IMG/VR virus record: IMGVR_UViG_2920693923_000001
Span: 64,001-128,000 of that record
Source of the DNA: a virus
Taxonomy: Duplodnaviria > Caudoviricetes
Direction: 5' to 3' (one strand)
Length of the DNA stretch: 64,000 bases
The notes under the pieces were generated by a model, which was not told where the DNA came from, did no database searches, and saw nothing but the letters and a program-made list of their open reading frames with translations. Numbering within the stretch: position 1 is the stretch's first letter; each line of letters starts with the position of its first letter. Both the position numbers and the translations under genes were made by a program. Of this stretch, positions 10,839-63,585 are shown piece by piece.

Positions 10839-12866
10839 GAGGAAAACAGAAATGGAAAATACAGTACGGTTATATACATATCAGGAAGCAGTACATATAT
10901 ATAAGAAGAAACAGGCTCGTAAAAAGGCAAAAAGGAAGGCAATCATCAAACGGAAATTAATCTGGTTATTACGTGCAAATTGGACATTGCTTACCATCGT
11001 GCCAATGATATTTATATCAAAATGGTGTTTTGATGGTTCACCAGATTACATATTATACATGATTGTATATAGTTTCTTATGTATATTATGTTGCTACGGA
11101 CATGTAAAGGGATATTAAAGCAGAAAGAAAGGATGGTTATTTTATGAATCCAGATTATGAACAAATTAAACATATAGCGTTAGAGAATGTAATGCAGAAA
11201 AAGAACAGAAAGGCAGTATATGATTTTCAGTGCCTCCACGCAGGAAAACATTGCAATAGAAAACGGAACAGAAAATAAAAGAGAATAAATGGATATTTCA
11301 TAGTGAAAGGCAGGTAAAAGTTATGTATAAATGGATGTATGACAGAGTTGTAACGGAACATAGTAAAAAGTCAAAAGAAGAACTTGCACAGGAGATTATG
11401 GCATTAGAAAAAATTGAGTGCTCTGATAGATGCTTTGCAAATGAATGCCAGGCAGGGGCGACTATCTATAATATCAATGAGTTATTTTCAGCATTGAAAG
11501 AACTGAAAGCGGGATTTACATATGAAAAAGCTGCTAAAGTTTATGAGTTGATGGAATCAGCGGAGAGTAGTTGGAATTATATTAAAAGAGAAATTTCTGC
11601 AATGAATGATAATTCAAGATGTAATAAGGTATTAGAAGATTTTAAAAACAAAGTTGCCAACGCAACTGATAGTAATGATAGTATCTGAAATGCGTGTTTC
11701 ATATGGAAAGGAGAAAATAAAATGAATGAATCATTATTAGCATTATTGAAAAAAGAGGATGGTCTTGTAAGAGATGTACGGTTAAATAAGGAAACTTATG
11801 AGATGTTGAGAGATAAAAATAAGCATCTTGCATCTGAATATATGGGAAAACTAGAAGAGTCTAAAGAGGTGCTTTTGGAGTGTCGAAAAGAAATCTCGCA
11901 GTATTTGGATTTTTTGGAGGTTTTAAAAGAGAGCTAAATTCGCATTTCAAAGGAAAGGAGCAAATTATGAATAGATACTTAGTTGTGTGGTTAAGAGAAG
12001 GCAGAGAGAATGTTGATGTCATTGATAATGCTATCACTCCGCATGAAGCAGCTAATAAGGTAAGAGAAGTGCATGTAAATGCTAACGTAGTAGCAGTAGG
12101 CATTATGTTAGACAACGAACAGTGGAATTACTTGTAGTAGTTGAAACTAAGATTTACAGGGAAAAGGAGTGATAATATGTGGAATACACCACATTCAAAA
12201 ACAGGATGGAATTTAGGAACAGAAGATGAATCTATAGAATATTTTACATTAAATGGTGTAACTTGTTATCATGATTTATTAATAGATAAATATTATGCTT
12301 TTCTTGGAATAGCAGGTGATAGAAAAGTAGAATTTGAAACTATAAAAGATTTACAAAATGGAGTGAATTGGCATCCAATGAGTGTGAATTATAAGAAGGA
12401 GTGAAGGCATATGAATATTAAAGAACAAAAGGCAGAAGCGCGAGACAGAAACGATTTAATAGATCACTTAATCAAGCTCATTGAATCAGATGATAAGCGG
12501 TATTCGTTTGAGTGGTCATGTGGTAATGCAATGGAAATTTTTGATAAAGAAAAGGAAGTCGGATATGTGTTACACATTGATAAGATTGAATATGATGTAG
12601 ATGGAAATGCAACTAATTTATAACGATTGGAGTGATTAAGATAAATAATAAACCATGTGCAATTGCAGTACGAATTTATGATGAAAATGGAATTACAAAG
12701 GCAGATGTAAAAACTTCTCCATGTGATGGTTTGAGAACAGAAACAATTATCTGGACTAAACTAGATGAGCGAGAGCGGTTTTATTATAATGGGTATACGT
12801 TGTATTATGATGAACGAATCAAAAATACAAAACCTTTTGCAGAAATTAAATAATAACGCAAATCAA

Positions 12867-12904
12867 AGGCAGTTAGGAGAATAAATACCTAGCTGCCTAT
12901 TTTA
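12867..12904 (+). terminator. Intrinsic terminator with GAGAATA in the loop
   Basis: AGGCAGTTAGG...CCTAGCTGCCT-ATTTT. Confidence 0.75.
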
Positions 12905-13142
12905 TTACAAGAAAGCAAGGTTGATTATGATGAAAAAATTTAGAAGTGCAGAAATGCAAACCGCATATAAAAATGGTGGATATAGAGAACAGTTTGCAAT
13001 GGTGAACGGAAATAAAGCAGAAATATATGTAAATGGACATAAATGTTTTAAGTTTACATATTCATCACGGAAAGAGTATCAGGATGCAAATGGAGCTACA
13101 TATGACACAGTAACAAAAAGTTGGATTGATTAGAAAGGCAGG

Positions 13143-14867: not shown

Positions 14868-17342
14868 TATGCTGAAAATTGAAATTAAAACAGGTGGTGC
14901 AGCTTATAGAAATGAAGATGGCGAACTTGACAGAAGTGCATATGAGTTAAGGCGAAATTTAAAAGAAATTGAAGAAAAACTTGAATACGGATATCAAGCT
15001 GGTTACATAATGGATATCAACGGAAATAAAGTTGGTAATTGGACACTTGAAGATTAGCAGGAAATTGTAATTTCAGGAGGTAATAAACATGGCAGAAAGA
15101 TACATAAAAGAGTATGCAAATGATTGTAAGAGAAAAATTGAAGAAAATAATCTAATTAGGAGTAATTTAAAAAATAAGATAATTGCAAAAATCAATAAGG
15201 CTGTAAAGCTAAGGGATAAAGAGCTGATTACAGCAGATGAAGCGATTAAAATAATATTGGAACGATTTGAGGCTTAATACAGAGAATAATAAGGCAGACG
15301 CAAACAAATGTGTCTGTCTTATTTTATTGGAAAGGAGAATGTGAAATGAAACAGAATCAGGTTTGCTATTACATTGAAGATAGTCAGTTTGCAATGTATG
15401 TATCATATGGAATATATGAGTATAAAACAATGTGTACTCACAAAGTATCACGGTTGAAAGCACCAGAAATCAGATTAATAAATGGAGTCCCATTTGATGA
15501 TTTCCAGTCAGAAACGGAATTTAAGAAAGTTCCTAAAGGATGGACTTATAGCACAGATTTATATACAGTCACAGAGGATCTGGAAAAGAAAAAGAAAATT
15601 AATGTTGCAATGAAAGGCAGATACATCAAAAATCCTTCAGATATTCAGTGGTTATTTGATAATGGTTATCTTGTAAAAATGGAAGATGTAGAACCTATTA
15701 TTGAACCTGAGTTTGATCATAATACATATAGACTTGTAAAAAAATATCCTGCATGGACACAGTGTTATGGAAGTCATAATGATGCATATCCAAATGAAGT
15801 GTTCGAGACTTATGAGGCTGCTGAAAAGCGAATGGATGAAATTAAGGAAAATAGGCATAGAAAAGCGGTTGAATGTGCATTATTAGACTTTTATGAGAAT
15901 TTAGAATGGGCATTAGAAAAATATGAAGCTGAACATGGTGGAAGAGAAATTGAAAAAATAAGGCAGAAAATTTTAGCAAGACCACATTTAGATGACATTA
16001 TGTTTAGATACTACAAGGGAGAAATTCTTGTCGTATCAAGGGAAGCACATAGAAAAGACACACATATTGAATGGGAAAAGATAGCATAGAAAGTGAGGTT
16101 GATTGATATGTTGGAAAGTTATGTTATGGAAAGTGCAGATTATGCAAAGATTAAGAAATTAATGACACTACACAATATGGAAACATTTTGGGATGACGTT
16201 AGAAAATTCACAAAGAATGTGAGATCGGATCATAGTTTAGGTAGATGGCAGATATTATCAGAAGCGAGATATGGTGAATTAATGCAAGCGAAACGTAGTT
16301 TTTATGAAGATTAAAATGAGGTGATTGATAATGATATGTGAAATAAGCAAGAAAATATTAAATGAAGTATATGGTGGAGATACAAAAGAATCAAGAGAAA
16401 AAGCGATTAAAGATGGATATTTTATGGAATGGACAAAAGAAAGAATTAAAAATGCATTTAAAGCAGGAAATGGAACAGAAAAGGATTTAAAAAGATATAT
16501 GAATGATAATAAACAATATTGTGTATTTGTAGAAATTTAAACCCAGTTGATAGAACTGTTTCTTGAAAAGAAAGTGAGGTACAAAATATGAAAACAATAA
16601 TTAATAGAAGCGAATGTAAACCATTAAGTGACAACATTGAAGGTAAGTTGGTAGTAATTAAACCAGATTTTTTCAAACCAGAATTTAGAGAAGCAAAATA
16701 TCAGATTGTACTTGCAACTGGAGGTTTTGGTTGTGATGCAAATAAGATGGGAAATGCGGTATATATAGAAGAAGTTCATACTGATAATCCAGAGCATTAC
16801 AGACAGGAAAGATACAACCTTATTGGTGAACCAACAGAAGAGATTATTAAGGAATGGAAATCAATGTATGGTGAATTTAATGAAAAAGTACAGAAAGCAT
16901 TGGAGGTGTAGGAATTATGATGACAAGAGAAAGATTTGCGGAGACAAACTGGAAAATGAGTTATGAGGAATATCAGAAATGCTATTGTCCTGAATGTAAA
17001 AAAGAAGAATGTCCACACAGAGGAGCAATAAGAAGAGTACCTGAAATTGATGGTGGACTTGGTTTATGTCCTAATCTGAAGGGAGAGTGATTAAAATGGT
17101 AGTAGAACGTAGATGTATTAATCTTTATTCTGATATGAATCCGTGGATGAATTTAGTTTTATTGGTAAATGATGAAGATTTTGATAAGGCAAAAGAAGTA
17201 ACAGAAAAAGCCTTTGATGATTTTTGGAATGATCCAAAAGTTGAAGAAGAATGTTGGTCTTATGGAGATTGGATTGGATGGAAACTGAAAGAAGTAGGTA
17301 TCGAATATGATATGTATTTTAGAGATGGAAAGGATGATTAAA

Positions 17343-17537: not shown

Positions 17538-18128
17538 ATGGAACTACGTGGCGTAATTGTGGATGAATGTGGAACTATTAAAAGATATTTCAGTGATTAT
17601 TCTGAAACCGAAAATGAAAAATATTTAGAAGATCATCCTGAGTATCATGTATCTGTTATAGAAAGCGAGGAATAGGTATGACAAGCACAATAACGAGAGA
17701 TTTTGTAGTTAAAAACGGAATCGCAAGCTTCCCGATGAAAGAATATCCAAACTATTGCGGGATTGAAGATATTGGATATATTTCACACGGAGAATGGGCA
17801 GACGCAGAACTTGAATACAAGGGAAGATTGTTCAACGAAAATGTGGTGTCAGATGTAATGTGGGAAAGATTTATTGAAGAATTTCCTGATAAAGATGGAG
17901 ATTACGAAGTCTTTAATCAGTATATATATGACAATAAGGACGAAGTGTATGAGTTATTAGAAGATTGGAGTGATGAAAATGAAGAATAATGATTATCCAA
18001 TATATTTTAAAAGTAAAGGTAATGATATATATGCAAGCTATGATGGTGTGCGATGGTTTTGGTATGGAAATATGGAATGTTGTTAGTAAGAAATAGCAAT
18101 TTCAAATGGAAAGGATGGTTGATTTATT

Positions 18129-18302: not shown

Positions 18303-21130
18303 ATATGGAAAATATTACAGTAAGAGAATGGGTAAATAAATTTAATAATAAAGAATTTGAGTCTAAAAACAGAGCAGTTCAGTGTAATGCAGGTTGGTAT
18401 GATTGGTTTTGTTCAGATGATGCGTTGGCTGGAAGATTAAAGAAAATGGGAAACATTATAAAGGATATTAAGAATGATTACATTCTTGATAATTTCAGAG
18501 TGTGGTTTAAAAATAATTGTCCTTGTTCTTATCCGCTATATGATGATTTTAGATTTGAGCCAATAATGGAAAACGGAGAAGATTCGGACGATACAATTCG
18601 TGACCAACTATATTTTGGAGTGCAATGCGGACATCCATTTGGAAGTGACTATATGTATGAAGTTTTTACAGCAAGAAATGGATATAGAACTGAGTTTAAA
18701 TGCAAAAATAAAAGAGAAGTTCTAAATGTAATTGAACAACTTGCAGAAGATTTTCAGAAAGAAATAGAGGTGTGAGTTGCGATAAAGAGTTAGAAATGGA
18801 GTGATGATATATGGATTTTACAGAATATATTGAAAAACAAAAGAAAAATTCACATAAAGATATTTTATCAGATATTTGTTTACTGTTACATAATTGTGCA
18901 GAATGTAAAGAATGCAATCCATCAGACATTTTGTATAGAGATGTTCAAAAAGCGACACAGAGTTGTTTTTATTTAGAACCATATGATAGCAAAACTAATA
19001 TTAAACTATTAGATATTGCAAAGAAACATAATTATCATGCAGGTTTTGTTAATTGGAAAGATGGAATGATGATTAAATTTTGGAGATGAATCAAGAGTTT
19101 CATTGAAAGAATGGAGGAAATGATATGACCTATTTAGAATTAGCAAGAAAAATAAAGAGTGCATATAAGGAATTAAAGCAAGATGAAGTATATAAATTTT
19201 TCAATGTCATATGGAATAATGACCTTGGAGAGTCAGAAATTACAGTTGAAAATGATGCTGGATTTAGAGCAATTATTATTGGTAATACAAGTAGTGTAAA
19301 AAAATCAAGAGGTTACATGTATTTGTTTTATACCAATGATGACACAGGATCATTTCCGACTATTAAAGAAATAGAACACAGATTAAAAGTAGTTGCAAAT
19401 CAAGAAATTTTAACAGATAAAAATGCGGATTATTTTGATTGGAAACAGTATGGTTCTTTAGAAGAACAGAGAAAATATTTTTCAGAAATAATTTTAAATA
19501 CAATGAAACGATGATTTACTGTGAAATTGGAGGGAATATTATGTTGAATATAGTTGTTATTAATTGTGATAGGAAATATGTGGAATATGAATGGGATTCA
19601 AAGAAAGCATTTGTACAGGATATGCAAAGTGATAATGAAAATATTCCAATGCTCGATGATCCTTTGGCAGAAGTCAACACACAAGACAATAATTTACAGT
19701 TATGGTGGAGAAATACAGATGGAATGACTGTAGACGATTTGTTAGAAGAATGTAAACAGGAATTAAATTAGATAGGAGTGATAAAATGGAATGTCCGATA
19801 TGCAAAAATAAACTAGGCTTTAATTGTGGAACATGTATTGAGTGTGGATATAATTATCTGAATGGAAAGTTTGAACATATAAGAGTTTATGTTGATGATT
19901 TAACAAATATTGTTCCGTTGGATATTTTAGAAGAATTGATAGAAGAACATAAAAAATTTAAGAAAAGATGAAACGGAAATTTATTTGGAGGTGATGCAAT
20001 GAAAATGAATATCCATATATCAGAAACGAAGAATGAATCACTCGCATATAAGCTAATCAGAAGAAAGGCAAGAAACATGTTAGAACCTTGTACGGATCAG
20101 GAACTTGGACAATATGTGCGAGGTATAGTTGACATGCAAAGCGAAATCTATGGAGAAGGAATTAGTCAGCAATCAATGAAATAATGTAGTTAATAACCTG
20201 TAGGCAACAATTGCTCGCAGGTTTTATTATTAAGGAGGAATTTATATGTTAGATATTACAGTCTTAAATAATATGGAATACGCAGATGCGGAAAATTTTG
20301 TACATGACAACGGCTATATTAATACTATCGGAGCGGATGAAGTTGCAGCTAGTAAATCCGATAGGGTAGCAGATACATACTATGAGTTATATGATAACGA
20401 TGGAAACATGGTTGATATGATAAGTTTCTATCAGTATTATAACGGCGAAAACATAAATAACCCTGATCTGAACGCAGAAATTGTAGAACAGGGATGGGAA
20501 AGAGTCGCCTAGTATGGTATAATAGTTACATATATAAGAGAAAGGAGGGAGACAAATGGAAGTTGATGCAATGACAAAATACAAAGGTTGGTATACGAAA
20601 GCATTAAATGCTTCAGAAAGACATGATGTGAATGATTTCTTGAATTATACATTAACGATTTATAATGGGACATCATTAAATGCACCAGACGACTTGTTAA
20701 AGTTGACTGAAGATGATGCAGATGTAAGCAAAGATGAAAAGCATAAAATCATGGTCAAGACATTATTAACATTACAGAATCAGCTAAAGACAAGAAAATA
20801 TTTATAATTTTTTAACTAATAGTTTAATAGGCACATATTGGAATGTAAATATTAATCTTTTATTGAAAAATGTTTTTAATTAATAGATACATTTTGGAAC
20901 GTATAATTTAAAGCTGTATATAAAGAAAAAGGAGATGATGATATGGACAGTCTAGCATTGATTATTACAATCGCTCTTATTTGTATAGGACGCAAGATAT
21001 ACATTGAAGCAAAAGTAAATAGCTATGATCTTGATAAGGTGTCAATCGGAAAAATGGCTATGGATGCTGGTAAAAGCCCATCACAGATAAAAAGTAAGAT
21101 GGTATCTGGTGGTTACAACAAAGATAGTAA

Positions 21131-22938: not shown

Positions 22939-25427
22939 GGTTAATTCCTCCGATAGAGGATAGTATAACAGAATATTAAAAGAAAGAAAAGGTGGTTGAT
23001 GAATATGTTCGGTGGACTGTTAGCGTTCTTAGGTATTTATGGAGCAAGTGCTGCAAAGGCAGCTAAAGATAACTATGATATGAAGAAAACTACTCGTACA
23101 GTTGATGAAAACGGAAATGTTCATTATATGGATAGACTTTGCAATGATTACATCAATGGAGAGCAAGTAAAGAGAGTTGAAACAACAGACAGGAACGGAG
23201 TTAAATTATATTCTACAGTTGGTGTTAATAGCAGTAAGGTGTACGACACTTCTTATGGAAGAGGTACACAGCAGTTATTTGCAATGAGTGAACATGATAA
23301 ACAGGAAAATCTAAAATACGGAAAAAATGTATATAGTCAATACAATCCATATTTCGGAAAAACTGTTACAACTGAAATTAGTTCAGGCAGAACAATTACT
23401 TGTTTGTTTAGTGGGAAGAATCAAAAGACTGGCAAAGAGTTCTATAGAGTATGGTATTTCCGTCCAGAATGTCAAGGAAAGCTTGATTATAATACGACTG
23501 TTGATGGCGATATGGGAATTGAAATTACAAAAGAAGAATTTAATAAGTTAAATTTTGGAGCTTTGACATGTACATGTATGCCAAGTGATTATGATGTAGT
23601 CCATGCATTATGGGGTGATAGGTAATGAATAAACAGAGAAGAGAAAAGATAAGGCAACTCAAAACTCAAATTGATTTGATTAAAACTGATTTGAAGAAAG
23701 TTTCAAGCGAGTTGTCTTCTATATTAAGTGAAGAACAGGATACATTCGATAACATGCCGGAAGGATTACAAAGTAGTTATAGAGGAATGTGTTCTGAAGA
23801 TGCTATTGATAATATGGAAGGAGCGAACGAGAAACTTGATGAAGTGATTGAGTTGTTGAATGATATTGTGTAGAATGGAAACAAGTAAATAATAGTTTCA
23901 TTTGAAGATTGGAGGTAAAAAATATATGAAATATGGAGATATAGTTGTATATAAAAATCAGATTGGAACAGTAGTAAAAAGCGAAAATGATTTTAAGTTC
24001 CATCCGTGTAATTATGGAAGTTGCTATTTTAGCGAGTTAAATACAATTACAGACGAGGATGTAAGAGAAGCAACACATGATGAAAAGTTGGAACTGATAG
24101 AAAAAGAATTTACATGGGGCAATGTGATTAAAATACATTACATTGGAGAATATCAGATTGTAGAGTATATTGATAAAAGAGATAAGAAAACATTTTATCA
24201 CGGATACATTAACTACAGCGATATAAATCGTTCGTACTCATCTCTTGATTCTGCATTGATTGGATGTATTGGATACAAACGTGAGGGTGGAAATGGTAAA
24301 GCTGCAATGTATTTTGATAAAATGATTGGTTTGGAATAAATTTATTAGAAGATTGGAGAATAAAAATATGATTTGTTTAGATTGCGGAAATATGGATATT
24401 CGATATGATGAAAAAGAGAAATCATATCATTGTAATAATTGTGGTTCGAGAAATATTGGTACAAGAAAAGAAGGGTGTAAATATATGCTAGGAAATGGAT
24501 TGTGTGGTAAAAATCCTGCATGTACGTCATCTGGAAAATGTGAAGCACCATGTAGCTATTATGAAAAATAGTAGGAAACCAGAAATGCAAATTAGCCAGG
24601 ATGAGTTTTTAGAGTTGTGTAAGGAAGCTGGAATTAAATAGATTGGAGAGTGAATGACATGTTATATACAATAGTACATACAGTAATTAATAATAGAGGA
24701 GAACACCCAGAAGCAAACGCAAGAGTGCTTGGAATATTTTCTGATAGAGAAACCGCAATCCAAGAAGCTGAGAAATGGATTGACAACACAAAAACATCTG
24801 ATGTAAATATTAAGAGAGTAACGGAAACTGAATGGTATTTCTGGTATGAAGAAAACGGAAATACTTATGGTGGATATGTTAATGTGTATGGAAATGAATT
24901 AGATAAGAAAGTAGTGTAGAAAGGAGCATGATTGTATGAATAGCAATTTTAGGGAATATAAAGGATATGTAATAAAAAAGATAACTATTCACACAGTAAA
25001 TGGTGCTTGTCTTGCATCATATGAAGTATATGCAAATAAATATAAAGATAGATTATGGATCGGAGATAAATTGAAAGATGCAAAAGCATGGATTGACAAT
25101 AACGGAAATAAATTAGATGAATTTTAACAAACAAGTCTTATTAGAAAGGAGAAAATATTATGACGAATTATGAATTGATTAAGAACATGAGTATTGAAGA
25201 TATGGCAAAGATGAATGTAAGAGCTTTTCATTATATGGGTGGATATAGAGCACAGACTGATTTTTATACAACGGATCAGCACATATTTGATACAAGAGAA
25301 GAAGCAGAGAATTATGAGTTGGAATGGTTGAAGTCGAATGAAGATATTGATACATTCAATACAATTACTTTAAAAAAATAACGATGTAATTAAATTTAAC
25401 TTTTATGTGCAATGTTAATACATTGTA

Positions 25428-26133: not shown

Positions 26134-27265
26134 ATTATAGCACCATTACTTATTAAAACAGAGAATATTAAAGTAACAAGAAACCAAGTTTTCTTGTGAC
26201 ATGGAGGTGTTTATAATTGATATATCGTTTACCCAGAACGGAAATATTTAATAATTCAAACAAAATTATTTTTGAAAGTATAAATTTTGGAGAAATTATA
26301 ATAGATAAGACAAAGAAGATAATAATTAATAATGATGTGGATATTACTGACAAAATAGATAAACTATTTTGCGGAAACACATTAGATTATAATCTTGCGA
26401 CAGTTTTACATAAAATATTACATAACAAAATTGATGAAAAATGCCGAGATTATTTACGGAAATTTGATAAAGTAACAGTAAAATAAAAAAGAAATCTAAG
26501 TTTACTATGGAAGGAGAATATCATGATGAATAATTTTTTATTAACGTATTCTGTTCCAGATCTAAATGGAATGGGTAGAATAAACATGTACAAATGGTTT
26601 GAGAATGAAGACGAACTTCATAGTTTTGTAGTCAAAGAGAAAAATTTGTATCAAAATGGTTTTATAGTTAATGAAGCAATGGAGATTTTGAATGACCGTC
26701 AAATTTTTACTGGCGGTGATTTGCCAAAAAGAAATTGAAATTTAACTTTCCTTGGAGGTGATATGTCATAAAAGAACACAAAAAGCAATGGATACTCAAT
26801 TATATGTCACAACATAAAGATGAGTTTATTGATATTGTATCAGAGAATTTTGTAAACGCATATATAAATGAGTTTAATCCGAAAATAGTAGAATGGTATC
26901 TATATGGAGCGCCGAAAGTTCCTGAAATTGGTAGGCTGCTCGCAGAATTATACAAAGAGAATAAAGTAAGTAGATATAGGCATTATTGCGAATTTTGGCA
27001 AGACGGATATCCAAAATGGTTTTATATTTACTTTTTACAAGGATAAAAAGAAAGAATGATTTACTTGGAAGATTGGAAGAGGTGATATAGATGGATAGAA
27101 AACGAAATAATCCTACATGGTGTTGCGATCAAATTGAAGAGAAGATTAATGATTATAAAAGTTCACTTGCAGAAATTAAAGAAGAAGAAGTAAAAAGACA
27201 GTTGGAAATTGTAATTGATGATTTGGAAACAATTTTATATGGGTAGATTGGAAGAGGTGATATGA

Positions 27266-27931
27266 ATGAACAAAAAAGAAGAATTAAAAAGATTAATTGA
27301 CAATCCTTTAAAACCAAATGCAGTTGAATGGGCAATGGATTCTGAAGATGTTTTGTCAAACATGAATTTACTTTCACCAGAAACTAAAAATTGCATTAAC
27401 ACGATAAAAGATCATGGAGGTGCATTTAAGCAATATAATGATGCTCTTGTTGCTATTTTAAAACGGGCGTATAAATCTATTGCAAATGTAATAACTCCTC
27501 CACCAATTAAGTCAAGACATCAAGTGTTTGTTGCAATGTGCTTTGATGATGAAAGAGAACGTCTGTATAAAGATGTTCTTACACCAATCGTACAAGCTGC
27601 TAATTATTCTATCGTCAAGGTGAACGACCAAGAATACGAAGGTTCTATTATTGGAAAAATTGTGGATGATATAACTGACTCAACTATTTTAATTGCCGAT
27701 CTTACAGGGAATCGTGGTGGAGTTTATTATGAGCTTGGTATTGCCAAAGGATTGCAGCTTTGTAATCATCCAATAAGAACTATACTTACTTGTGATAAAG
27801 CATTTTTTGATGATGAAAAGGTTCATTTTGATGTACAAGGTGATAATATTATTCTTTATACATCTGACGAGGATTACAAAGAAAAATTATCTCGCAGAAT
27901 TCAATCATATAAAAATGAAATGAATGGTTAA
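27266..27931 (+). CDS. Nucleoside-deoxyribosyltransferase/TIR-like fold protein
   Basis: VFVAMCF...IVDDITDSTILIADLTGNRGGVYYELGIA...HFDV. Confidence 0.65.
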   Translation: MNKKEELKRLIDNPLKPNAVEWAMDSEDVLSNMNLLSPETKNCINTIKDHGGAFKQYNDALVAILKRAYKSIANVITPPPIKSRHQVFVAMCFDDERERLYKDVLTPIVQAANYSIVKVNDQEYEGSIIGKIVDDITDSTILIADLTGNRGGVYYELGIAKGLQLCNHPIRTILTCDKAFFDDEKVHFDVQGDNIILYTSDEDYKEKLSRRIQSYKNEMNG

Positions 27932-28601: not shown

Positions 28602-28667
28602 TAAATATTTAGAAATGAAAAATTGCTTTCTTGTTGAAGGCGAATCAAATATAGAAATAAGCATTAG

Positions 28668-28693: not shown

Positions 28694-28993
28694 TTGCAAA
28701 AAAATGAGGTGATAAACATGAAATGCAAAAATGGAAATCCAAAGCGAAGCAGTAGATTTATATGTTTGAAATGTATGCAACTTAATCCATGCGGATCAGG
28801 TATACAACGAGGTGGACATCAACGTGAAAAATATCATATTAAAGATTTGATGTGCTTATATTGTAAAGATGAGAAAGCAACTAAAAATATAGAAATCCGT
28901 TGGTGCGATAATTATGATGAAATTTATGCAAAAGCAATGGAAATCAGAGAAAAATATTATAAAGAAGATAATAATGATAGAAGGGTAGGTTGA
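28694..28993 (+). CDS. Zinc-ribbon protein
   Basis: CLKC...HIKDLMCLYC. Confidence 0.6.
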   Translation: MQKNEVINMKCKNGNPKRSSRFICLKCMQLNPCGSGIQRGGHQREKYHIKDLMCLYCKDEKATKNIEIRWCDNYDEIYAKAMEIREKYYKEDNNDRRVG

Positions 28994-30030: not shown

Positions 30031-30098
30031 AATAAATTTCCATAAATTACCATGATACAAACTGAGAAAAAAGATGTAAAATTATGTAAAGACGATAC

Positions 30099-42700: not shown

Positions 42701-42709
42701 GAGGACTGT

Positions 42710-44671: not shown

Positions 44672-45147
44672 AATTAACAATTGATATTCCAAAAGGATAT
44701 GAAAGAGATTTTATAGCTGATAAGTTTAAAGATTTCTTTTCAAGAGTAATTACAGATATAGACTATAGCGATCTGTGTGGTAATTATGAAAAAGAAATTG
44801 CAGAAATGTTTTTAGAAGCATTTGACAAAGCTATTATTGGTGATACTAATCTAAATGCTAATGTTATTCCAGTTGAAAATATATCTTTTGACAAAGAAGA
44901 TATGAAGAAGATGATTCAAGACGAATTAAAGAAGTTCCAAGTAGAGAATAATCTAATATAGAAGTAATTCTATTCACGGCTGATCAGCCAAATTTCCCCA
45001 AAAAGTAACAAGAAATATTTTTTTCATTCGATTAGGCAAACGTGCCTATTTTCGGGTGATTTTACAACAAAATAATATTAAAAAGAAAGGATTTAACAGT
45101 AAATTCTAGGTAATTATGGTTACGTAACCTCTGTAGATTAAAGGATT

Positions 45148-46923: not shown

Positions 46924-48603
46924 TAAAAATTAAGACCGATTGAAAGCGGAACTTCTTTTTTAACGAAAGGAGAGAATATGGAAGGAATAACTAGGAATAT
47001 AAAAGACGAAAAACAGTCTATCCGTAATGAACTTATTCAGAGAATTAAATATTGTGGACAATATATAGTAGACAACGCTGAAATAATCCTTGGAGAAGAT
47101 AAATATCTTGCCGATTTATATTTGACATGTAACTTTTTTGATAGAAGTGAAGCTCCATATGTAACTGTCAATAAAGATATAATCCCAGATGGTTTTATTG
47201 AAGAAAGATAACTTGTGAAGACGATAGGAGAATAAGTATGTATCCAGAATACGATGATTTTTATGAGCCAAGTGAAGGTGAAATGTTTTTTGATGAAATG
47301 AAAGAAAAGTTCAGAGAGATTTTACGTGAAGATGTAAACTCTGAAATTAACAGATTAACAAAAGAAAATGCAGAATTAAGACAGAAAGTTAAAGAGTACA
47401 ATGATAAAAATTGGGATCTGTCTCGTAGAGAAAATGATTTACAGTACAAGATAGACAATTACAAACGAGAGGTAGAAAACGATTTTTACAATAAAACAAT
47501 GGAAGAAGTTTTTGAAAAATTATTAGAAGACTCAGAAGTGTGGTATGCAGAACATGTTCCTCATGAGAAACCAAAATGTAATTTATGTAACGAGGAAAGA
47601 AAACTTATTGCAGTATATCCAAATGGTGAAACTGTAACCAAGGATTGTGAATGTTCTCGACCAGTATATATTTATGAGCCAGCTATTTCATTGAATAAAG
47701 AGATTAAATTTCATAAAGCATATAAGCCAAGATACAGTGATAAAAAGAAAATCTATTTTACTAAAAATCACGAACCAAACAAGGATTATGCAGATGTATA
47801 CGATTATTATAGTGAATTTAGGATAGAGAGTATTTTTGATGATTTTAACGATGATGTAATTCTATGTCACAATGGTAAAAGATATGGAGAAAAAATTGCA
47901 TTCAGAAGTAAAGAGGCTTGTCAGAAATATTGTGATTGGCTTAATAAGGAGAATAAGTAAATGAATAAAGCTGTTTTAGTGTTAGATATGCCAAGTAGTT
48001 GTGATAAATGTCCATGTTTTTGTGGTCATTATTCTGATATGTGCTGCATGGCTTTAAATAACCGTACAATTGATTATCCATATCCGAAAGATTTTAGACA
48101 AAGATGGTGTCCATTGAAAGAATTATCAGATGAAAAACACAATGATGAATATATGGATGAATATTGTGATGGCTATGATGATGGATGGAACTCATTAAGA
48201 AAGAAAATTTTAGGTGAAGATAATGAATAAACTATGTGAAATTTGTGATACAAGAAATAGACTTGGGATGTGTAAAGGCAGAGACGGAGATTTTCAATAT
48301 TGTTTTAGAAGAGTTGGTTCTACGAACGGATTGGAAGAAACAATTACTCCATTTAATACGTTACATGAATTATATGAGAAGTGTAGTTGGCTTAAATGGA
48401 TTGTTCCTGAAACACTTGTACTGGAAAATGAACCATATGGTAGAGGAAACGATATGGTGTTGCTTTGGGGACAATCCGAAAGACAATTAGGAACAAATGA
48501 AGGTCAGCCAGTAGGTTATGTTATAGCTAATGTAACAGAAGATATGGAGGGAATTTTGTATTCGGAAGAATCATAGATTTCATAGGAAGAAAAGGAGACA
48601 ACA

Positions 48604-51765: not shown

Positions 51766-53190
51766 CATGATAGACAACGAATTACGTCAGCAATATAGAC
51801 AAGCTGTTGATGATTTGAGAGTAGCATTTAAGAAGACTTGTTTGTACAGATTTTGCGAAGAAGTTGTAAAGAGATTAAGTAAGATTTTGAGATAGTAAAG
51901 GAGAAGAATTGAATATGAAATTTAAAGGAATTGAATTAAAGGATAATACAGAAGCGGAATTATTAATCGCAATTGAAATAGTAAATATTAGCGATGAAGA
52001 CGAATTAGACGAATATGGTGAAGAACTGGAAGAAACATTATATGATGAGGTTTTTGATTATGATAACTGCGATGTTTATACTGAATTTTTAGATGGTGAT
52101 CTTTTAAATGTGCGTTGTGATGATATTACATTTGATGAGAAAGGTGTTGAGCTTATTACAACAATTTACAAAGATATTATAGAAGCAAACTTAGATAATA
52201 TTAATGTAATGATAGGTGTTCATGTTGATGGCGGTGAATGGTTTAAAAGAGAAGATGGTTCTGAATATAATGAAGATGTTGTTACTTTGGAAGAGTTTTT
52301 AAGTAATATTGAATATTAAAAAGTAACAGTAAAACCACGTTTCATTCGAGGAGGTGATTGAGTGGATACATCATGTGAAACTTGTAAATGTAATACCTGT
52401 AAGATGAATGAAAATGGTGGCATTTATGGTGGATGCTTTGATTGTGAAGATTGTAAAGAGCAAAATCTGTACTGTGAAGATTGTTCAATGTATGAATACG
52501 ACAAATACAGATTGAGTAATTAGGAGAACAACAGTATGAATAAGAGACAGAAAGAGAAATTCATTAAAAAGAATATGACGAAACTAAGGAAGATACATCC
52601 AAATGAAGGCGATGTTGTAGTTCTTCAGTGGAATCCAGATAGTGAATATATAGATTTTGATACCATTGTTGAGTTTTATAAAGCATGGGAGAACGCAGGA
52701 ACTTTTGATAAATGTGGTGCTGCTATTGTTCCATGTGATTTTAAGATTTTCAACAAGGAAGAAGCTCAGATATTTATTGATAAGTTACAGAGCATTGTAG
52801 ATCGGATGGGAGAATAAATGAATATACAAACAATTGAAGGTTTAGGTTATAAAATCCTCATAACTGAGTATATCACTAAAGATGTTCAAAGAAGAACTCA
52901 CAAGAAAAAGCGTATTAACAAGAAGTGGTTGAAAAGATACGGCATAAAAATTATACCAGATAACACGAAAATACTTCTAGTGAATAATACACTTATGATG
53001 ACAGGAAAATGTTATGAAAAACTAAGAAAATTCGCAGATAAAGATGCTGATAGTATGGAAAAATTTTTGAAAGAAGCTACTAAGAAACAATCTCAATAAA
53101 GAAGCATTTCAAATGATTTTATCTAAGAGCGTTTCTGCTCACAATTTCCAAATAAAAGAGAGAATAATTAAATATAAGGAGGTATAAAAC

Positions 53191-53453: not shown

Positions 53454-55533
53454 GAGAATAAATATGTGTAACCGTTGTAATTATGACTCGCCTGACAATC
53501 GGATATATTTAGATCCACTGACGAATGAATATTATTTAGACATAGAAACTTCTGAATGGGATGAATATGATGACGGATTTGTTCATCAGCGAGAATATAT
53601 TGCATATTGTCCTTGGTGTGGAAGAAAATTAGAAGAATAAAATACAAGAGGTGATTCGATGAGATGCAGAGATTGTCCTTATGGGATTGAAGATTTTACA
53701 TTAAGAACAGAAATGTATAAATCTGTATATGGTGAATATCCAGATGAAGATAGAGCCAATCAATCAGAACAGTTTGTTTGGTGTGATAAAGTTGGTGGTA
53801 AAGTATATTCTTTTGGTCATTGTAGTGATTGGTATGAACAAGACGAAGAAAATTATAAGAATCATTCTAAGAAAAAGAGAATAAATAAACGTGAGAGATA
53901 TTTGAAACATCAGAATCACCTCAGATATTTATATGAAACTGTTGGTGGTTATTATCCAACGCCTGTTAGATATGTGGATGAAATATGGATTAAGGGTATT
54001 GGTTATATTAAAAATCCAAAGCCATATTATCAGAGATTGTATCGTGGCAAGAAAAGTAAATATTTAAAACAGTTATCTAATAGGAAAATACGTAAATATA
54101 AAGGTGAGTTGCATAATGGCTATCAGCACATCCATAAAATTTTTGATTGGTGGAATGAATTTTGTTAGGAGAATAAATATATGAAGATAGAGTTAATCAA
54201 ATTAAAATTCAATGATACTTGTGCATATAAGTATAAGCCATTTAAGTATTGTTGTGATGAAATTCAAAATGATAAAGCTATTGTATTTACAGGTGAAGAT
54301 TTGGTATGTAACGATACTTTTGGATTAGTAGTAAGAGATTCAGATGACACTATAATTCCTCAATTTTGCAATTCATACACCGAAACATTTAACTCTTGGG
54401 GTGATGAGTATGAGCAGACAGACAATTATCCAATTCAGTTCTGTCCTCATTGCGGAGAGAAGATTGAAATTTCAGTCGTAGAAGAGATTGATGTATCTGA
54501 TAAATATGAAGAATTAACTAAGCAGCGTGATGAATTATGGAAGAAGTGTCGGAGAACAGATAGCAAAAAGAAAGAATCTGAGCTAAGAGAGCAAGTCAGA
54601 AAGCTGGATGACCAGATTAACGGTTTTTATTGGTTAGATGAGTGGAAAGGAGAATATTAAAATGGAAAACAGATTATTATGGGAAAATGACGTAATTAAA
54701 GCAATTAGAAATCATACCAATATCATTGGACAGTTAGAGGATGATATAACTCATGTTCTTGATGATGTGCAATCAGTAACAATAGTTGGCTCAAAACAAG
54801 CATTAGATAACTTACAAGTAGAGTATAAGCAAGTACAGAAACAGAAGCGAGTTGAACTATTCGAGAATAAAGATGTCGTTTTAGAGCAGAGAGGAAATAA
54901 ATATTACTTATCTCTGTACGATAAGAAGGGAAATTTCCAGAGAGAAGTCACTATTTAGGTCAAGGATAATTACAAGGTTGGACTTGGAAATTGTAAGTAA
55001 ATTCAGGATTCCTTTGACTTTAAGTAACTTCACAGTAAAGCAACATATCATTTGAAAAATAAAAATTATAAAGGAGAATATTAAACATGGAAACAATTTT
55101 AAAATTATTAGCAGAGAACCCAGAAAGTTTAGGAGAGGTAGTAAAGACATATATTACAAAATATAAAAAGCCTGTATATGATGTTCTGAAGGAACTCATG
55201 ATTATTGCAAAGGATTATTCTGAGAATACTGAGTATCCTGCAATTCAGGCTAGAACTAAGAAGAATATGTTTGATGCATATGTAAGTGTTGGTTTTACAG
55301 AGGATCAGGCATTAGCACTTATGATTAACGACAATATTCAGCTTATGAAGAATATTCAGAAGTCAGTTAATAATACTTCTGTAAAGAAGAGCAAGTAGTG
55401 GTTTCGCAGTAAACCAATCTTTCTTGTGAAAATTTTTAATCATATCTAAGCCATTCGGCTATGGGAATCCCGACAAATAAGAGAATATTACAGTGTAACT
55501 AATAAAAATATTACATATAAAGGAGATTTTTAA

Positions 55534-56841: not shown

Positions 56842-58066
56842 GATTTTTTCAAGTGAGGTTAGAGGATAAATGGACAAAAAAAATTAAAAATAAATTAATT
56901 GAATGGGTAAAGAACAATTATAGTCCAAAGGCATGTGGATATACAGAAATGAGATCTTCTGGAAATGAATCCGATGTATTTTGTGACGGATATGATTGTG
57001 GCATATCAAACGCTGCATATGAAATTGGTTGTATTCTTGGTATGAAATTAAAAGAACCTGAAGAGCAGGACTATGGCTTCTAAAATTTAAATGAAATTTT
57101 TCTTTCCCTTGGACAGATTGGAGGTGTGAAATGAAAAAGTATTATAGACAAGTAATCGCATTTCTTTTGGTATGGTTTTGTAGTGGTATAACGATGTATT
57201 CATATCAAGTAGAAAATAAAATACTTGGAATTACTTTTACATTTTTAAGTTTTTTATATTGGTTCATTATAGATAAAGATGATTAGGAGAATAAGTACAT
57301 GACACAATTACCAAAAACAAGTTGTAGTATTCCGATGCCAGAAGTTATAGCTATTCGTGACACTAGAATTATTGCAAAAATTAAGTTATGTGGTGGTGCT
57401 GTAACGATTAATGTTAATGAAACAATGGCATGGAAAAAACCAACTGATGAGCAGATTAAAAATTTACACGATTTATTCTGTATTGATGTTGAAATATTAG
57501 ACAGGGGAGAATAACATTATGAAAGCATATTTAGTAGAGCGACCTGCAAGTGGTTGGTGTCAAGATTATGTAATGGTAATTATCGCACAAGATGAAAGAC
57601 ACGCTGAAAGAAAAGCAAGAGTAAGTTCAGATGACTTCAAGAAGTGTCAAGAGATTACCATTACAGAAATTGATATGAATGAAGAACAGTGTGTTTTGAC
57701 AGCAAATACAGGTGCATAGGAGGATAGTAACATGAGAACAGAGAATATAGAAGTAACATTTAAAATTCCAATTCCAGTTGATAAACCTGATTTGAACGGT
57801 GTCATATATTCCAAAGAAGCAATTAGAAATGCTTATAAAAATGTAAAGGATGTTCCGATTGAAATGTCATGTAGTGATGGTCAGTTTCTTCCTATTGGAG
57901 TAGCACAGGAAGTTGAGTTAATTGAAGACGAAGATGGTATGTATATTACAGGCGTTGGTCTTGTTTGGCATGGTGGTACAGAAGAAAGTGTTGAAATTAA
58001 GGATAGTAAGGTAACTAGCTTTAAAGTGAATGGCATTGGAATTGTAAAAGAGTAGGAGATAAAGAT

Positions 58067-59733: not shown

Positions 59734-60100
59734 ATAGAGAATAAATATTTGTGAGGTAGTATTTAAAATGGGTTATTGTTTTAATTTATATACACCAGAT
59801 ATGAAAGAACAGGATAGTGGAAAATTTGTAGCTTGTGAGAGATTGTTGTTTTCTAATAATGTACCATTTACTGTTAATACAATTGGATATTACGAACAGT
59901 ATATTGGTGGTAAATATTTGGATATTTATAACAGTGTTTGTATTTTAAATGAGCAACAATGTGAAATTGCAGATGAATATACAGGAACGACATTCTTTAC
60001 AGATTTTATTAAAAAACATGACTGTAATGGAATGTTCATACAGATAACATGAAAAAAGATTCATTTCTTTAGGAAGTTTTAACAGATAGGAGTGATATAA

Positions 60101-61231
60101 ACGAGAGTATATAAAGATAAACAGTATCTCATTTTTGATTATGAAGATGGACGTACTGTAAAATATGATTTCGCAACAAAGACTGCTATTGGAATTAAGG
60201 GTAAGCCAGTAAAGAACTTATGTAGTCAGTTAAGTGGATTTACCTTAAATGAGTTATTTGATTGTTGTGATGATGAGAAATATGCAAAGTTTTTACGATT
60301 TATTAGAAATTCAGAAACATACTCATATTCAATAAGTAACATAGGAACAATTCTTGATAGAGTTCCAAGATATGATAGATTTGAACAAATCTTCTCAGCA
60401 GGATTTGATGACATTATCAAAGATGGTTATCGGTTTAAATATTCTATAAATGAGATTCCAAAATCTCTAATCAAATTATGTCGTAAATATCCCATTAAAT
60501 TATCCAACAATACTGTTAAGTATTATAAAGAAAACCAAGATGCTCATTACATAGCATACAATCTTGATTATCTTAGTTTATCTCTTAATGACATTTACAC
60601 TGTTTGGAACACAGAGATATATTGTAGGGTGAATGATATTTATACTTATTATTCATTTTTCAATAAATTAGTAAATGAATATGACTACAATGCCAAAGAT
60701 TTATGGCTGTATTTGGATAGAATTAAGACATTTGAGGCAGTTGAAGATATGAGTTTCTTGATTCGTGAATTGTGCGATTATGCTAATATGATGAATCAAC
60801 TTAGTTCAAAATATGATAAATATCCACGACATTTCCTTACTACACATAAGATTGCCTGTAGAAATTACAATCGAATGAAGAAAGAGTTCTCAGAAGAATT
60901 ATTTAAAAAGAGAATAAATAAGCAGTATGAATGCTCTTTTGGTGATTACATATTCATTTATCCAGATTCTACACAGGATATAAAGGATGAGGCGACTATG
61001 CAAAACAACTGCGTAGCTTCATACATAGATAAGGTTATTGACGGTGAGTGCCACATTCTTTTCTTGAGAAAGAGGAACAAACCAGACGAGAGTTTGGTAA
61101 CGATTGAAGTAAGAAATAATCATATCGTACAGGCTAGACGAAGATTTAATGATGATGTAACAGCAGAGGATCAGAAAACTATTGATGCATTTAATAAAAA
61201 GTTTGCGAATAAGGAGGATAAAGCAGCATGA
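60101..61231 (+). CDS. PcfJ-like domain protein (376 aa from an ACG start)
   Basis: EATMQNNCVASY...ILFLRK...LVTIEV...IVQA; frame open 176 codons upstream of the track start. Confidence 0.8.
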   Translation, partial: TRVYKDKQYLIFDYEDGRTVKYDFATKTAIGIKGKPVKNLCSQLSGFTLNELFDCCDDEKYAKFLRFIRNSETYSYSISNIGTILDRVPRYDRFEQIFSAGFDDIIKDGYRFKYSINEIPKSLIKLCRKYPIKLSNNTVKYYKENQDAHYIAYNLDYLSLSLNDIYTVWNTEIYCRVNDIYTYYSFFNKLVNEYDYNAKDLWLYLDRIKTFEAVEDMSFLIRELCDYANMMNQLSSKYDKYPRHFLTTHKIACRNYNRMKKEFSEELFKKRINKQYECSFGDYIFIYPDSTQDIKDEATMQNNCVASYIDKVIDGECHILFLRKRNKPDESLVTIEVRNNHIVQARRRFNDDVTAEDQKTIDAFNKKFANKEDKAA

Positions 61232-63585
61232 TTAAAGGTGATAAAATTAAACTCGTTCATAAGATGGGCGTGTTTGATAACATTGGTGAGATTTGTGAAG
61301 TAACTGATATTCAGGAAGGTGGAGTAATTTGCTTTAAGTTTGGTGGTTGCCATCTTGGTTGTATGTCATATGACGAGTACGAGAAGTATTTTGAGAAAGT
61401 TGAGATATCTACAAAGAGGACTTGGAGTAAATGGTACTTAAATGAAATTAGGTTTACAGATATTAATGGCAAAGATGTAAGATGTAACTATCTTTATCGA
61501 ACTAATGGGAAGAAAGTTCAGGTTAGAAGTGGATCATTTAAAGCAGAAGCTACCTGTTGTAAAGATGATGAATTTGAAATTGAAAAAGGTTTGAATCTTG
61601 CTAAGAAACGTCTGGTCGTAAAATACCTTGATAACCAGGTTAAGTCGATTGCAAAGGCGATGTAAGAGGAGAATAAATATATGAAAGTATTTGATAAAAT
61701 TTTTGATGCAATTAGCAGTCTTAATAACAACATTATACATTTAATTGATTGCTATAAGAGAGAACATGATGATGTGATTGGAACATATAACAGCTACAGA
61801 GATATTATTCAGGAACAGGATAGAATCATACAGTCGTTACTGAAATCACAGACAACCAATAAAGATATGGAATGTATGGTGTTTGTTCCATATAGAGGTA
61901 AGCCAGTTGTAATTAAAAATGGCGAAGTAGTCAGTACAGATAATATGACTTCATTTGATGTTGATTGGGCTTACGATAGACGAACTGATGTAACTGTGAG
62001 AGGAGAATAAATATATGGTTGGTAAAGAATTATGCAAAGTACAGTTCATGAAAGCTTTTGAAGATAGTTGTTATGATCTTGAACAGAAAAACATTATCTT
62101 AGATTCAATCAGGGTAGCAACATTAGATGATGATAAGCATTTTAAAAAAATTATCCCATTTGATATTCAAGTAGCAGGTGAAAATGGATTTCGTATTAGA
62201 CCATGTTTTTCAAAAGGAAAGTTTCTTGTAATGTATGAATGTATGATGAAAGCATATAAGGTTACAATTCCAGCTAATGCGTTTCCTTATCATATGAATG
62301 AGAATGGAGATTTTGAAATCTGCATTCCGAGTGAAGAGAATAAATAAGTAGGAATTATCGGTTTACTTGGGAGGTGAAATAAATGAGTTGTAAATATCCA
62401 GTCAATAGTAGAAGTTATAAGTTTTGTTTAGGCTGTAGCGATATAGGTTGTTGTGAAGATGCAGTTACTTCTAATATACCTATGCCAGAAGTTCAGCCAC
62501 CAAAGAATGTTATTCCGTCTGCATCAGAAGCAAATAAGATGACAAATAACGCAATTGATAACCGCACTACGCAACAATTAGCAGAATTATCTAAATTAAT
62601 TAGAGATGCGATTGCAGATGGCAAATTTTCAATCAGTGAAGATGGTTGTTTAAAACCTGAAACACGGACGAAATTAGAGGGACTTGGTTATAAAGTCGAG
62701 ACTGGCACTCGGTACAATGAGCCATATTACAGTATTAGTTGGAGAAAAACAAAGTAAATTTCGATTTCATTGGCTTCGCAAACCCAGTATTTACAAGGGT
62801 TTCAGAGATTAAAAAAATCAAAAATGCTCAAATCGAGTGAAAATCCATAATTTTCAATGATTTTTAGAGAATAACAAAAATGAGGTGCTGAAAACCCTTA
62901 TAAATCAAGGGTTTTGCAGTATCAATATCAAGAAACAGAGAATATAAGAATAACAAGAAATCACTGTTTCCTGTGGATTTCGAGGAGGTGAGAAAGATAG
63001 AGAATCTTATAAACTTATCAGATATTATTCTTGATAAATTAGAGAATATACATATAGATGCAAAAGGTACTATTAAAGACAAATCAGAAAGTACAAATAT
63101 CGGAATTGATATTTCAAATTTAAATGATGCAAAGATAGAAATTACTTGTTGGGATGAATGGAATTCTATAACTGGAAAAATTGAGCATAAGAAAAAGGCA
63201 ACAATTAGTTTTACAGATTATGAAATGGACTATAAATTCCAAGATAAAAACAAAACTAATATATTAGAATGTTTATGGAAAGCAAGTAAAAAGTAATTAA
63301 AATATCTAATCAGTCTTGAACAATTCAGTTCAAAAAATTCCAAAACAAGATGTCTCGAAAATTATATAAAAATCGAGACAAAGCAAGAGAACAAATAAAT
63401 GCGGAAAACATTTGTGAGGGTGGAAGAACAGCATACCCTTGGGTTTTTATACTCAAAAATCACTGTTGAAGATAGATTTTTACATAAATTTATTTTCTGT
63501 GTTCCGTCCTTTTTGGGCGTTTAGATAGATTGTTTTATTAACAATATTTACATAAATTTTTAAATTTTAAGGAGGATAAGTAATT

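Follow-up and report, generated by a model that had tools for sequence, protein, structure and literature searches.

The window analysed here (64,000 nucleotides; bases 64001-128000 of a 159.9-kb IMG/VR provirus, record IMGVR_UViG_2920693923_000001; G+C 32%) carries a long series of short palindromes at the junctions between its early genes. The provirus has an SPbeta-like layout, with minus-strand structural genes up to ~70 kb followed by ~87 kb of mostly small plus-strand early genes, and among the early genes of this 160-kb prophage we found ~45 copies of a 26-bp site with two-fold symmetry. A 427-aa integrase lies at the right end of the provirus, and the adjoining host genes are common in human-gut metagenome contigs; the host is a human-gut Firmicute. 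A megablast search against cultured phages did not find a close relative at the DNA level.

A first-pass annotation, made from the sequence alone, had listed 34 palindromes of the form KAAA-N6-TTTM at gene junctions between 11286 and 62970 and had cautioned that so short a core would also arise by chance. The palindromes are present where it placed them, and the caution was apt: the bare core occurs 39 times in the window versus 22.8-23.7 expected from Markov simulations (sd 4.4), a weak enrichment which implies that ~40% of bare-core matches are due to chance, the curated list being much better than this. The stricter form GAAA-N6-TTTC occurs 11 times versus 3-4 expected, and the excess of the core was seen at the 6-bp spacing alone. 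The listed sites were then aligned and a matrix was refined over the whole genome. In a logo of 156 unique sites from six genomes, the refined motif, T[A/C]N[A/C]A[A/G][G/T]AAA-N6-TTT[C/a]NT[T][T/G]G[A/G]A, is nearly two-fold symmetric, with the ~10-bp arm consensus TCNCAAGAAA inverted around a 6-bp centre and no conserved element upstream of the site. Within the plus-strand early block the matrix matched 37 times versus 1.1 ± 1.2 in third-order Markov simulations, so that the enrichment over a composition-matched background proposed as a check is strong, and 31 of the 37 matches lie at junction-like positions, a class that covers 16.5% of the block (p = 4e-19).

Placement of the sites relative to the genes also agrees with the first description, in which most overlapped or closely followed a stop codon and many stood just ahead of the next ribosome-binding site. 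The stop codon usually falls within, or just ahead of, the left arm, and at most sites the start codon lies 28-41 nt past the core start. Junctions at 7-11 kb and 28.7-36.9 kb had been reported as free of sites, and the matrix matches there only at 9744 and 34321, both within coding sequence. Outside the window, at genome positions 33712, 35349 and 52807 (minus strand), gene-sense copies of the palindrome stand at late-region junctions, with spacers common to relatives. We found no published description of these junction palindromes, which are apparently unpublished.

For comparison, five related contigs of 98-161 kb were recovered through a neighbouring gene and taken whole; these relatives (G001-G005) and the genome of the window (G000) make up the six genomes. 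A profile of the 346-aa tyrosine recombinase family encoded in the window yielded 80 further loci from viral contigs of 90-215 kb, with recombinase identities of 46-99%. All 80 loci contain the motif (~10 sites per 21 kb), and at least 85 contigs of 90-215 kb belong to the family. The sites of the window, given without strand, and the two genes of interest among them are listed below; scores are those of the refined matrix, and counts are the relatives (of 5) or loci (of 80) that have the same spacer.

11286-11299: junction site, spacer TGGATA, score 18.8, 3 relatives
11687-11700: junction site, TGCGTG, score 15.4, 3 relatives; homology to G003 on the right flank only
11935-11948: junction site, TTCGCA, score 13.6, 3 relatives
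12143-12156: junction site, CTAAGA, score 16.2, 3 relatives; four left-flank classes
15061-15074: junction site, TTGTAA, score 17.3; homology to G001 and G005 stops at core +12
16549-16562: junction site with one arm mismatch (GATA), GAACTG, score 5.9, 3 relatives, 19 loci
18090-18103: junction site, TAGCAA, score 19.0, 4 relatives, 33 loci; left half joined to the right half of 19970 in G002
19088-19101: junction site (GAAT arm), CAAGAG, score 12.7, 2 relatives, 31 loci
19505-19518: junction site, CGATGA, score 24.0, 2 relatives, 27 loci
19970-19983: junction site, CGGAAA, score 19.9, 1 relative, 30 loci; breakpoints of G002 and G003 at the core
23886-23899: junction site, TAATAG, score 20.1, 3 relatives, 54 loci
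25391-25404: doubtful match (TAAA-TTTAAC-TTTT), probably chance, score 8.6; spacer as at 26737; a sigma-A consensus promoter follows at 25428
26180-26193: junction site with perfect 8-bp arms, CCAAGT, score 25.9, all 5 relatives, 54 loci; five left and five right flank classes
26491-26504: junction site, TCTAAG, score 22.1; G002 alike on the right flank only, G003 on the left flank only
26737-26750: junction site, TTTAAC, score 20.2, 5 relatives, 41 loci
27050-27063: junction site, GAATGA, score 25.2, 5 relatives, 30 loci; leader duplicated at 27246
28617-28630: junction site ~75 nt upstream of the Zn-ribbon/recombinase gene pair, AATTGC, score 17.6, 46 loci, median position -662 from the recombinase start
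28694-28993, plus strand: Zn-ribbon protein, 99 aa, overlapping the start of the recombinase gene; weak PHROG match only
28990-30030, plus strand: type A tyrosine recombinase, 346 aa, candidate site enzyme; Pfam Phage_integrase (1e-12), without the N-terminal core-binding domain
37111-37124: junction site (AAAA arm), AATTCT, score 15.2, 2 relatives; ATTCTC, shifted by 1 nt, in 32 loci
37648-37661: junction site, GTTCGA, score 25.1, 4 relatives, 53 loci
37991-38004: junction site, ACTTCG, score 19.7, 5 relatives, 47 loci; five left and five right flank classes
43659-43672: junction site, CGCACA, score 23.0, 3 relatives, 23 loci
45012-45025: junction site, TATTTT, score 20.3, 4 relatives
46942-46955: junction site with one arm mismatch (CTTC), GCGGAA, score 6.7, 4 relatives, in which the arms are intact
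48568-48581: junction site (GAAT arm), CATAGA, score 21.9, 4 relatives; three left and five right flank classes
52330-52343: junction site with unique spacer, ACCACG, score 23.6; left flank as at the CCGAAG site of G004, crossover at the left edge of the spacer
53097-53110: junction site, GAAGCA, score 12.7, 3 relatives
54998-55011: possible site (ATTC arm), score 15.0, counterpart in 0 of 5 relatives
55036-55049: possible site (TATC arm), score 18.4, counterpart in 0 of 5 relatives
55410-55423: junction site with 12-bp arms, CCAATC, score 23.6, 2 relatives
57093-57106: junction site, TTTTTC, score 16.8, 3 relatives
60054-60067: possible site (AAAA arm), score 14.0, counterpart in 0 of 5 relatives
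62352-62365: junction site (GAAT arm), TATCGG, score 21.8, 3 relatives; right half joined to the left half of the CATAGA site in G003
62755-62768: junction site, TTTCGA, score 19.8, 4 relatives
62957-62970: junction site, TCACTG, score 24.3, 3 relatives

For thirty of the 34 coordinates, then, one or more of the five relatives has a called site with an identical spacer (for 25391 only through the address of 26737), and 52330 is a strong site with a spacer of its own, whereas 54998, 55036 and 60054 found no support.

A feature that the first reading overlooked is that the 6-bp spacers are position-specific, collinear across genomes and conserved, each behaving as the address of its junction. 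The 195 sites of the six genomes have 79 distinct spacers, 46 of them shared, with no repeat within a genome and with fully collinear order. Across the 80 loci the addresses around the recombinase run TAATAG, CCAAGT, TCTAAG, TTTAAC, GAATGA, AATTGC, recombinase block, ATTCTC/AATTCT, GTTCGA, ACTTCG, CGCACA, and each of the ten recombinase-flanking addresses was found in 23-54 of the 80 loci, save AATTCT (3/80, versus 32/80 for the 1-nt-shifted ATTCTC). Where the homologous flank was 9-10% diverged, the spacer was identical in 81-88% of pairs, versus 54-55% for control 6-mers of the flank, although the pairs counted are not independent of one another and a mosaic history obscures any clock. Arbitrary 6-mers that are each kept at their own position point to a function through the matching of DNA partners rather than through recognition by a protein. 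Nearly all exchanges join same-spacer sites and the spacers are conserved beyond their flanks, as partner matching would predict, but common descent and synteny predict much of the same. Repeats of a spacer within a genome stayed at chance level even at a lax threshold, and we accordingly rejected the direct repeat at 25391/26737 as a footprint of circle integration. A scan of the collection with one 14-mer address returned mostly chance matches.

We then compared the DNA on either side of the sites. The five relatives are strongly mosaic, and many ends of BLAST segments fall on sites. Among 240 same-spacer pairs, the 200-nt flanks were alignable on neither side in 128, on one side in 69 and on both in 43, and comparison of the flanking open reading frames (ORFs) as proteins agreed with these classes. 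The 46 shared addresses account for at least 64 extra left-flank classes and at least 59 extra right-flank (downstream-ORF) classes; at the CCAAGT address, five different left and five different right neighbours occur in the six genomes around an unchanged AAA-CCAAGT-TTTC. Most breaks in homology fall at core position 0/-1 for the left side and at 13/14 for the right side, the latter with a tail that reaches the start codon. The left arms of same-address sites with unrelated flanks are 0.48 identical versus 0.40 for the arms of unrelated sites; being nearly as unlike as random arms, they leave a tract common to the exchange partners that is often only AAA-N6-TTT, ~12 bp. A shared tract of this length is judged too short for ordinary homologous recombination, given the minimal homology lengths of that process. 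Cross-address hybrids are rare: the two clear cases are both joined at the edge between spacer and right arm. Natural variants, namely the stops at core 0/-1 and 13/14 and the two hybrids, would thus place the joints at the edges of the overlap, with 28% of right-side joints further out. In the window's genome, breakpoints were found at 42 of 53 scored motif junctions versus 96 of 203 motif-less ones (odds ratio 4.3), which makes the sites preferred joints and by no means the sole ones.

In the gene replacements that distinguish relatives, homology runs out at the borders of AAA-N6-TTT. The accessory region thus acts as a row of exchangeable slots of one to several genes, in line with the cassettes originally proposed. 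Slot cargo includes RelB/PemK, an Abi-alpha-like protein, a P-type ATPase with three TerD proteins and a PspA-like protein, a C5 methylase, LemA, a radical SAM protein and PcfJ; by function, the swapped genes include toxin-antitoxin, abortive-infection-like, methylase and tellurite-resistance-like genes, together with many that lack a known function. The slot between the sites at 37991 and 43659 (38124-43459), which encodes the P-type cation ATPase, the three TerD-domain proteins and the PspA/IM30-like protein, is unusual phage cargo.

The arms appear to be read on double-stranded DNA. At the mirrored variable positions of the arms, Watson-Crick pairs are no more frequent in the 156 sites than independence predicts, and the K/M combinations number G..C 74, T..C 47, G..A 22 and T..A 7, the compensating T..A being the rarest. 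The lack of covariation implies that each half-site is read on duplex DNA, and the sites are putative duplex targets of a two-fold symmetric protein. Inverted arms of ~9-13 bp around a 6-8-bp overlap are the generic form of a tyrosine-recombinase core site, and mirrored ~10-bp arms with specificity for an N6 spacing are what we found; the likeness to tyrosine-recombinase sites drawn by the first-pass annotation, with inverted arms and a free 6-bp spacer, therefore stands.

A sister motif occurs in Bacillus phages. SPbeta (L009-L011, AF020713) contains 34 TAAAA-N6-TTTTA sites versus 0-3 at other spacings, located between stop codons and ribosome-binding sites and separate from its SPBRE boxes. 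SPbeta and phi3T (L254, KY030782, 50-100 kb) share six spacers in the same order; at two of these both flanks are at background similarity, and at two others the right flank only is homologous. This palindrome, and not SPBRE, is the true counterpart of the present motif. Its like behaviour in SPbeta and phi3T suggests that a feature more widespread among SPbeta-like phages, and apparently unpublished, is represented here by one of its sequence variants.

With regard to the enzyme, each of the six genomes has, in addition to the 427-aa prophage integrase, a second tyrosine recombinase whose R-K-H-R-H-Y set is intact. In the type A protein of the window the residues R58, K88, H236, R239, H266 and Y275 are invariant in 22 homologues. 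Its AlphaFold model (pLDDT 79) has only tyrosine recombinases among its best Foldseek matches in the PDB (IntI, XerA, XerH), at E values of only ~3e-3, the top match being IntI (2a3v; E = 3e-3); a sequence search against solved structures gave no match, and BLASTP found no similarity to YopR or YopP for type A or for type B. Type A is present in G000 and G002-G004 (in G002 at only 62% identity) and absent from G001 and G005, where the same position is occupied by type B, a classical recombinase unrelated to type A, whose N-terminal domain is SAM-like and whose catalytic motifs are intact. The mid-genome tyrosine recombinase is thus a replaceable allele, either type A, with a long insert and a C-terminal extension, or type B (28990-30030 versus L045:3721-4749(-) and L052:7303-8304(+)). 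Both types occur in other address-bearing contigs, and the Zn-ribbon protein is the sole nearby gene common to all six genomes (47-60% identity).

Since motif and addresses are alike in the type A and type B groups, these arms are read either by both enzymes or by neither; if by neither, the reader would be a conserved phage protein or a host Xer-like enzyme. Type A as the sole enzyme is contradicted by G001, G005 and the other type B contigs. The ParB-like protein encoded at 9673-10608 is an unlikely reader, its homologue being missing from G002, which has the sites. Arm sequences do not decisively track the recombinase clade, with only a slight shift (AATGAAA..TTTCAT) in the clade of 46-50% identity. 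Sites of single-recombinase Xer systems have the arms TTTCCGAAAA / TTTTCTTGAAA (difSL) and AGTTATGAAAA (difH) (PMC5357621). The arms described here resemble those of difSL and difH, which offers a lead rather than a test.

We give an even chance to the following interpretation of these comparative data: that the palindromes are duplex sites of the tyrosine-recombinase type, serving as addressed crossover points for the in-register replacement of accessory slots, with enzymes that are candidates only. A putative two-fold symmetric protein would bind the inverted ~10-bp arms that flank the 6-bp overlap region. With a spacer of its own at each junction, strand exchange would be productive mainly between same-position copies of co-infecting or co-resident relatives, and a pair of exchanges at two addresses would replace the genes between them in register, without deletion or scrambling of the genome. 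The candidate enzymes are the second mid-genome tyrosine recombinase (type A here), perhaps together with the Zn-ribbon protein, or a host Xer-like enzyme. We infer from the comparative data both that the crossovers are the work of a recombinase and that the spacers of partner sites must be identical.

Recombinase-mediated cassette exchange with Cre or Flp offers the closest logic. Heterospecific lox or FRT sites share arms and differ in their spacers, only like-spacer sites recombine, and two such sites allow clean replacement of what lies between them. Collinear spacers suggest the same addressed logic here; the laboratory system is engineered around a known enzyme, whereas here the spacer rule is drawn from comparison. 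Integrons, the label first offered, likewise have one-directional arrays of small accessory genes, imperfect palindromes, exchange within the palindrome and a tyrosine recombinase gene within the element. Their attC sites, of 57-141 bp, are conserved in structure rather than in sequence and recombine as folded single strands. We found instead fixed, sequence-conserved 26-bp duplex sites without covariation or a folded-hairpin signature, no attI/Pc, a recombinase located mid-array in a site-free block, and sigma-A promoters within a slot (25428) and beside the recombinase block (30367), and exchange runs slot for slot rather than by insertion at one attI; the integron label was therefore dropped.

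The Xer/dif system and pdif modules (PMC6449649, PMC13141974, PMC5357621) share with our sites the ~10-11-bp inverted arms, the 6-bp centre and the many copies that bound small shuffled accessory modules, and the inner GAAA..TTTC and the words TTTCTTG and ATGAAA of the difSL and difH arms are alike. However, pdif sites copy the host dif, are worked by the host XerC/XerD, have two different arms and bound modules of alternating orientation, whereas the present arms share one consensus, slots and spacers keep one orientation and order, each slot has a conserved spacer of its own and the system is phage-borne. In T4-type phages, PeSL cassettes (Arbiol et al. 2010, PMC2839356) are likewise short conserved elements between small non-essential genes that mark gain, loss and replacement; they combine a strong promoter with a terminator stem-loop and recombine by homology, whereas here neither signature is found and the spacers are position-specific.

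It is plausible, at somewhat less than an even chance, that these phages hold a natural counterpart of heterospecific-site cassette exchange, in which large SPbeta-like phages would keep dozens of sites with common arms and position-specific overlaps, as GAAA-N6-TTTC in those of gut Firmicutes and as TAAAA-N6-TTTTA in those of Bacillus, and a tyrosine recombinase would swap slots without internal deletion, as a dedicated system distinct from integrons and dif modules. The mosaic genomes of phages are usually ascribed to infrequent exchange, illegitimate or homologous, on which selection then acts. The gut phages described here, a large family with a sister form in SPbeta and phi3T, show built-in, position-coded joints for the replacement of accessory genes; if driven by a recombinase, these would represent a new class of cassette system, would account for the fast turnover of hypervariable defence and counter-defence regions in temperate phages, and could provide genome engineers with naturally orthogonal recombination sites. 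Since the sister motif is present in SPbeta, the idea is directly testable in Bacillus subtilis.

Several observations weigh against a dedicated, addressed recombination system. The uniqueness of spacers within a genome equals the chance expectation for ~45 random 6-mers. The same motif and addresses accompany two unrelated recombinase types, which is hard to square with either as a specific reader, and all the recombinases are candidates only. The flank-pair counts comprise non-independent events; ~28% of right-side breaks lie in the leader, at least 20 nt further out and as far as the start codon (null 2%), and motif-less junctions also break often (47%). Moreover, the leader GATTGGAAGAGGTGATAT that follows site 27050 is repeated before the gene at 27266 (window 27050-27266), and in all five relatives this leader runs directly into the counterpart of that gene, so that a 51-codon ORF (27091-27246) appears to have been inserted here with a duplicated leader. 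Together, the motif-less breaks, the leader breaks and the duplicated leader indicate that other exchange routes operate in these phages. In laboratory SPbeta-phi3T hybrids, 15 of 16 crossovers were reported to fall in ordinary homologous regions (bioRxiv 10.1101/2020.05.06.055103), which counsels caution in assuming a dedicated enzyme.

The main rival, which we hold less likely than not, is that the palindromes are punctuation or operator sites at which a dimeric phage DNA-binding protein, acting as repressor, roadblock or silencer in the manner of stoperators or KorB operators, controls the early genes; swapping would then be a by-product of short-homology or microhomology recombination, with selection keeping the products whose sites are intact. 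The duplex, two-fold symmetric nature of the sites, their absence from junctions of the lysogeny and regulatory blocks, their fixed placement from stop codon to ribosome-binding site and the indifference of the motif to recombinase type all fit such a role, as do the frequent breaks at motif-less junctions and in conserved leaders, and the formation of the laboratory hybrids by homologous recombination. Other phages, too, have numerous dispersed repressor sites, such as the stoperators (PMC9283540). Both the stoperators of cluster A mycobacteriophages (PMC9283540, PMC6550527) and the SAS/ESAS of cluster K (PMC3203893) are, like our sites, dozens of copies of a short motif in intergenic gaps, often in contact with a stop codon or just upstream of a start. 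Stoperators, however, are 13-bp, asymmetric, orientation-dependent targets of a monomeric immunity repressor, for which no spacer, addresses or gene swapping have been described, unlike the two-fold symmetric sites here. A spacer-blind dimer would also leave unexplained why the 6-bp spacers are conserved beyond the flanking coding DNA and why they persist when both flanks are replaced, and the ~12-bp tract often common to the partners is very short for homology-dependent exchange. The sites are not associated with promoters, and no candidate regulator was found, the ParB-like gene being missing from G002.

The first-pass annotation had itself offered operators of a recombinase-like repressor as an alternative, citing SPbeta MrpR and its SPBRE sites. 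The palindromes would then be a version of the SPBRE/MrpR(SroF) system that differs in sequence and has the 28990-30030 protein for its repressor, which we consider improbable. The SPbeta-like layout and a tyrosine-recombinase-fold protein in the lysogeny region recall that system, in which MrpR binds ~ten dispersed SPBRE boxes (PMC10516654). Yet SPBRE, AAATACAAAWAATATGTAT in the boxes from ten MrpR-bound SPbeta promoters, is a different word, unrelated in sequence and located inside promoters, whereas the present sites show no tie to promoters. Applied to SPbeta, our matrix gave chance-level matches only, and SPbeta has its own junction palindrome besides SPBRE; identity with SPBRE was rejected on both sequence and location. 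SroF is a monomer on a 24-26-bp asymmetric box and lacks the catalytic tyrosine (bioRxiv 10.1101/2025.11.27.690993), whereas type A, which has no BLASTP similarity to YopR or YopP, keeps this and the other catalytic residues and so does not look like a catalytically dead repressor.

Still less probable is a role as promoters or promoter-proximal elements for the host RNA polymerase with the phage sigma-like protein (32250-32813). The position 28-41 nt upstream of start codons and the presence of the sigma-like gene in all six genomes would suit it, but the logo is symmetric, without -35/-10-like spacing or anything conserved upstream, a position-specific conserved spacer is not needed by a promoter, and another motif, ACAGAGAATA, which is gene-sense, makes the better candidate for a promoter. 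Promoter- and terminator-like matches at the sites were at background level only, and a tie to sigma-A promoters or terminators was rejected for want of enrichment; the only perfect sigma-A promoters in the window are at 25428, 30367 and 30339. We give almost no credence to RNA or single-stranded DNA hairpins, whether processing sites, terminators or attC-like folded recombination sites: the sequence is palindromic and some copies allow 8-bp stems (26180), but no variable mirrored position has a Watson-Crick excess, the stems would be short and A/U-rich, there is no T-tract, and a terminator scan found none at the sites, so that this alternative too was rejected.

The motif ACAGAGAATA, allowing at most one mismatch, has 40 copies versus 10.2 ± 3.1 expected. 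It is gene-sense on both genome arms and often lies at junctions (for example 6135-6144(-), and 15279, 26158, 30685, 35529, 45151, 55900, 57738 and 62935 on the plus strand); five copies precede a palindrome site by 6-20 nt. The motif may represent the -10-like part of a phage-specific promoter.

The site-free block downstream of the recombinase showed further features. Back-to-back perfect sigma-A promoters (30339-30311, minus; 30367-30395, plus) lie between the recombinase and a MazF-like gene, and a bidirectional terminator-like hairpin (30089-30117) stands just ahead of this pair (30311-30395). An RRXRR/HNH endonuclease gene (33131-34378) is found, among the six genomes, only in the window's genome and G002, and in G003 and G004 the BLAST segments skip exactly the stretch that holds it (32824-34421). 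Two genes for tRNA-Gln (UUG) were located at 31359-31432 and 36547-36619, and the called ORF 31365-32093 has its start within the first of them. At the left edge of the window, the minus-strand gene at 2-2215 (genome 63606-66215) encodes an 869-aa protein without a Pfam match, at the position that yonO, the gene for a single-subunit RNA polymerase, has in SPbeta.

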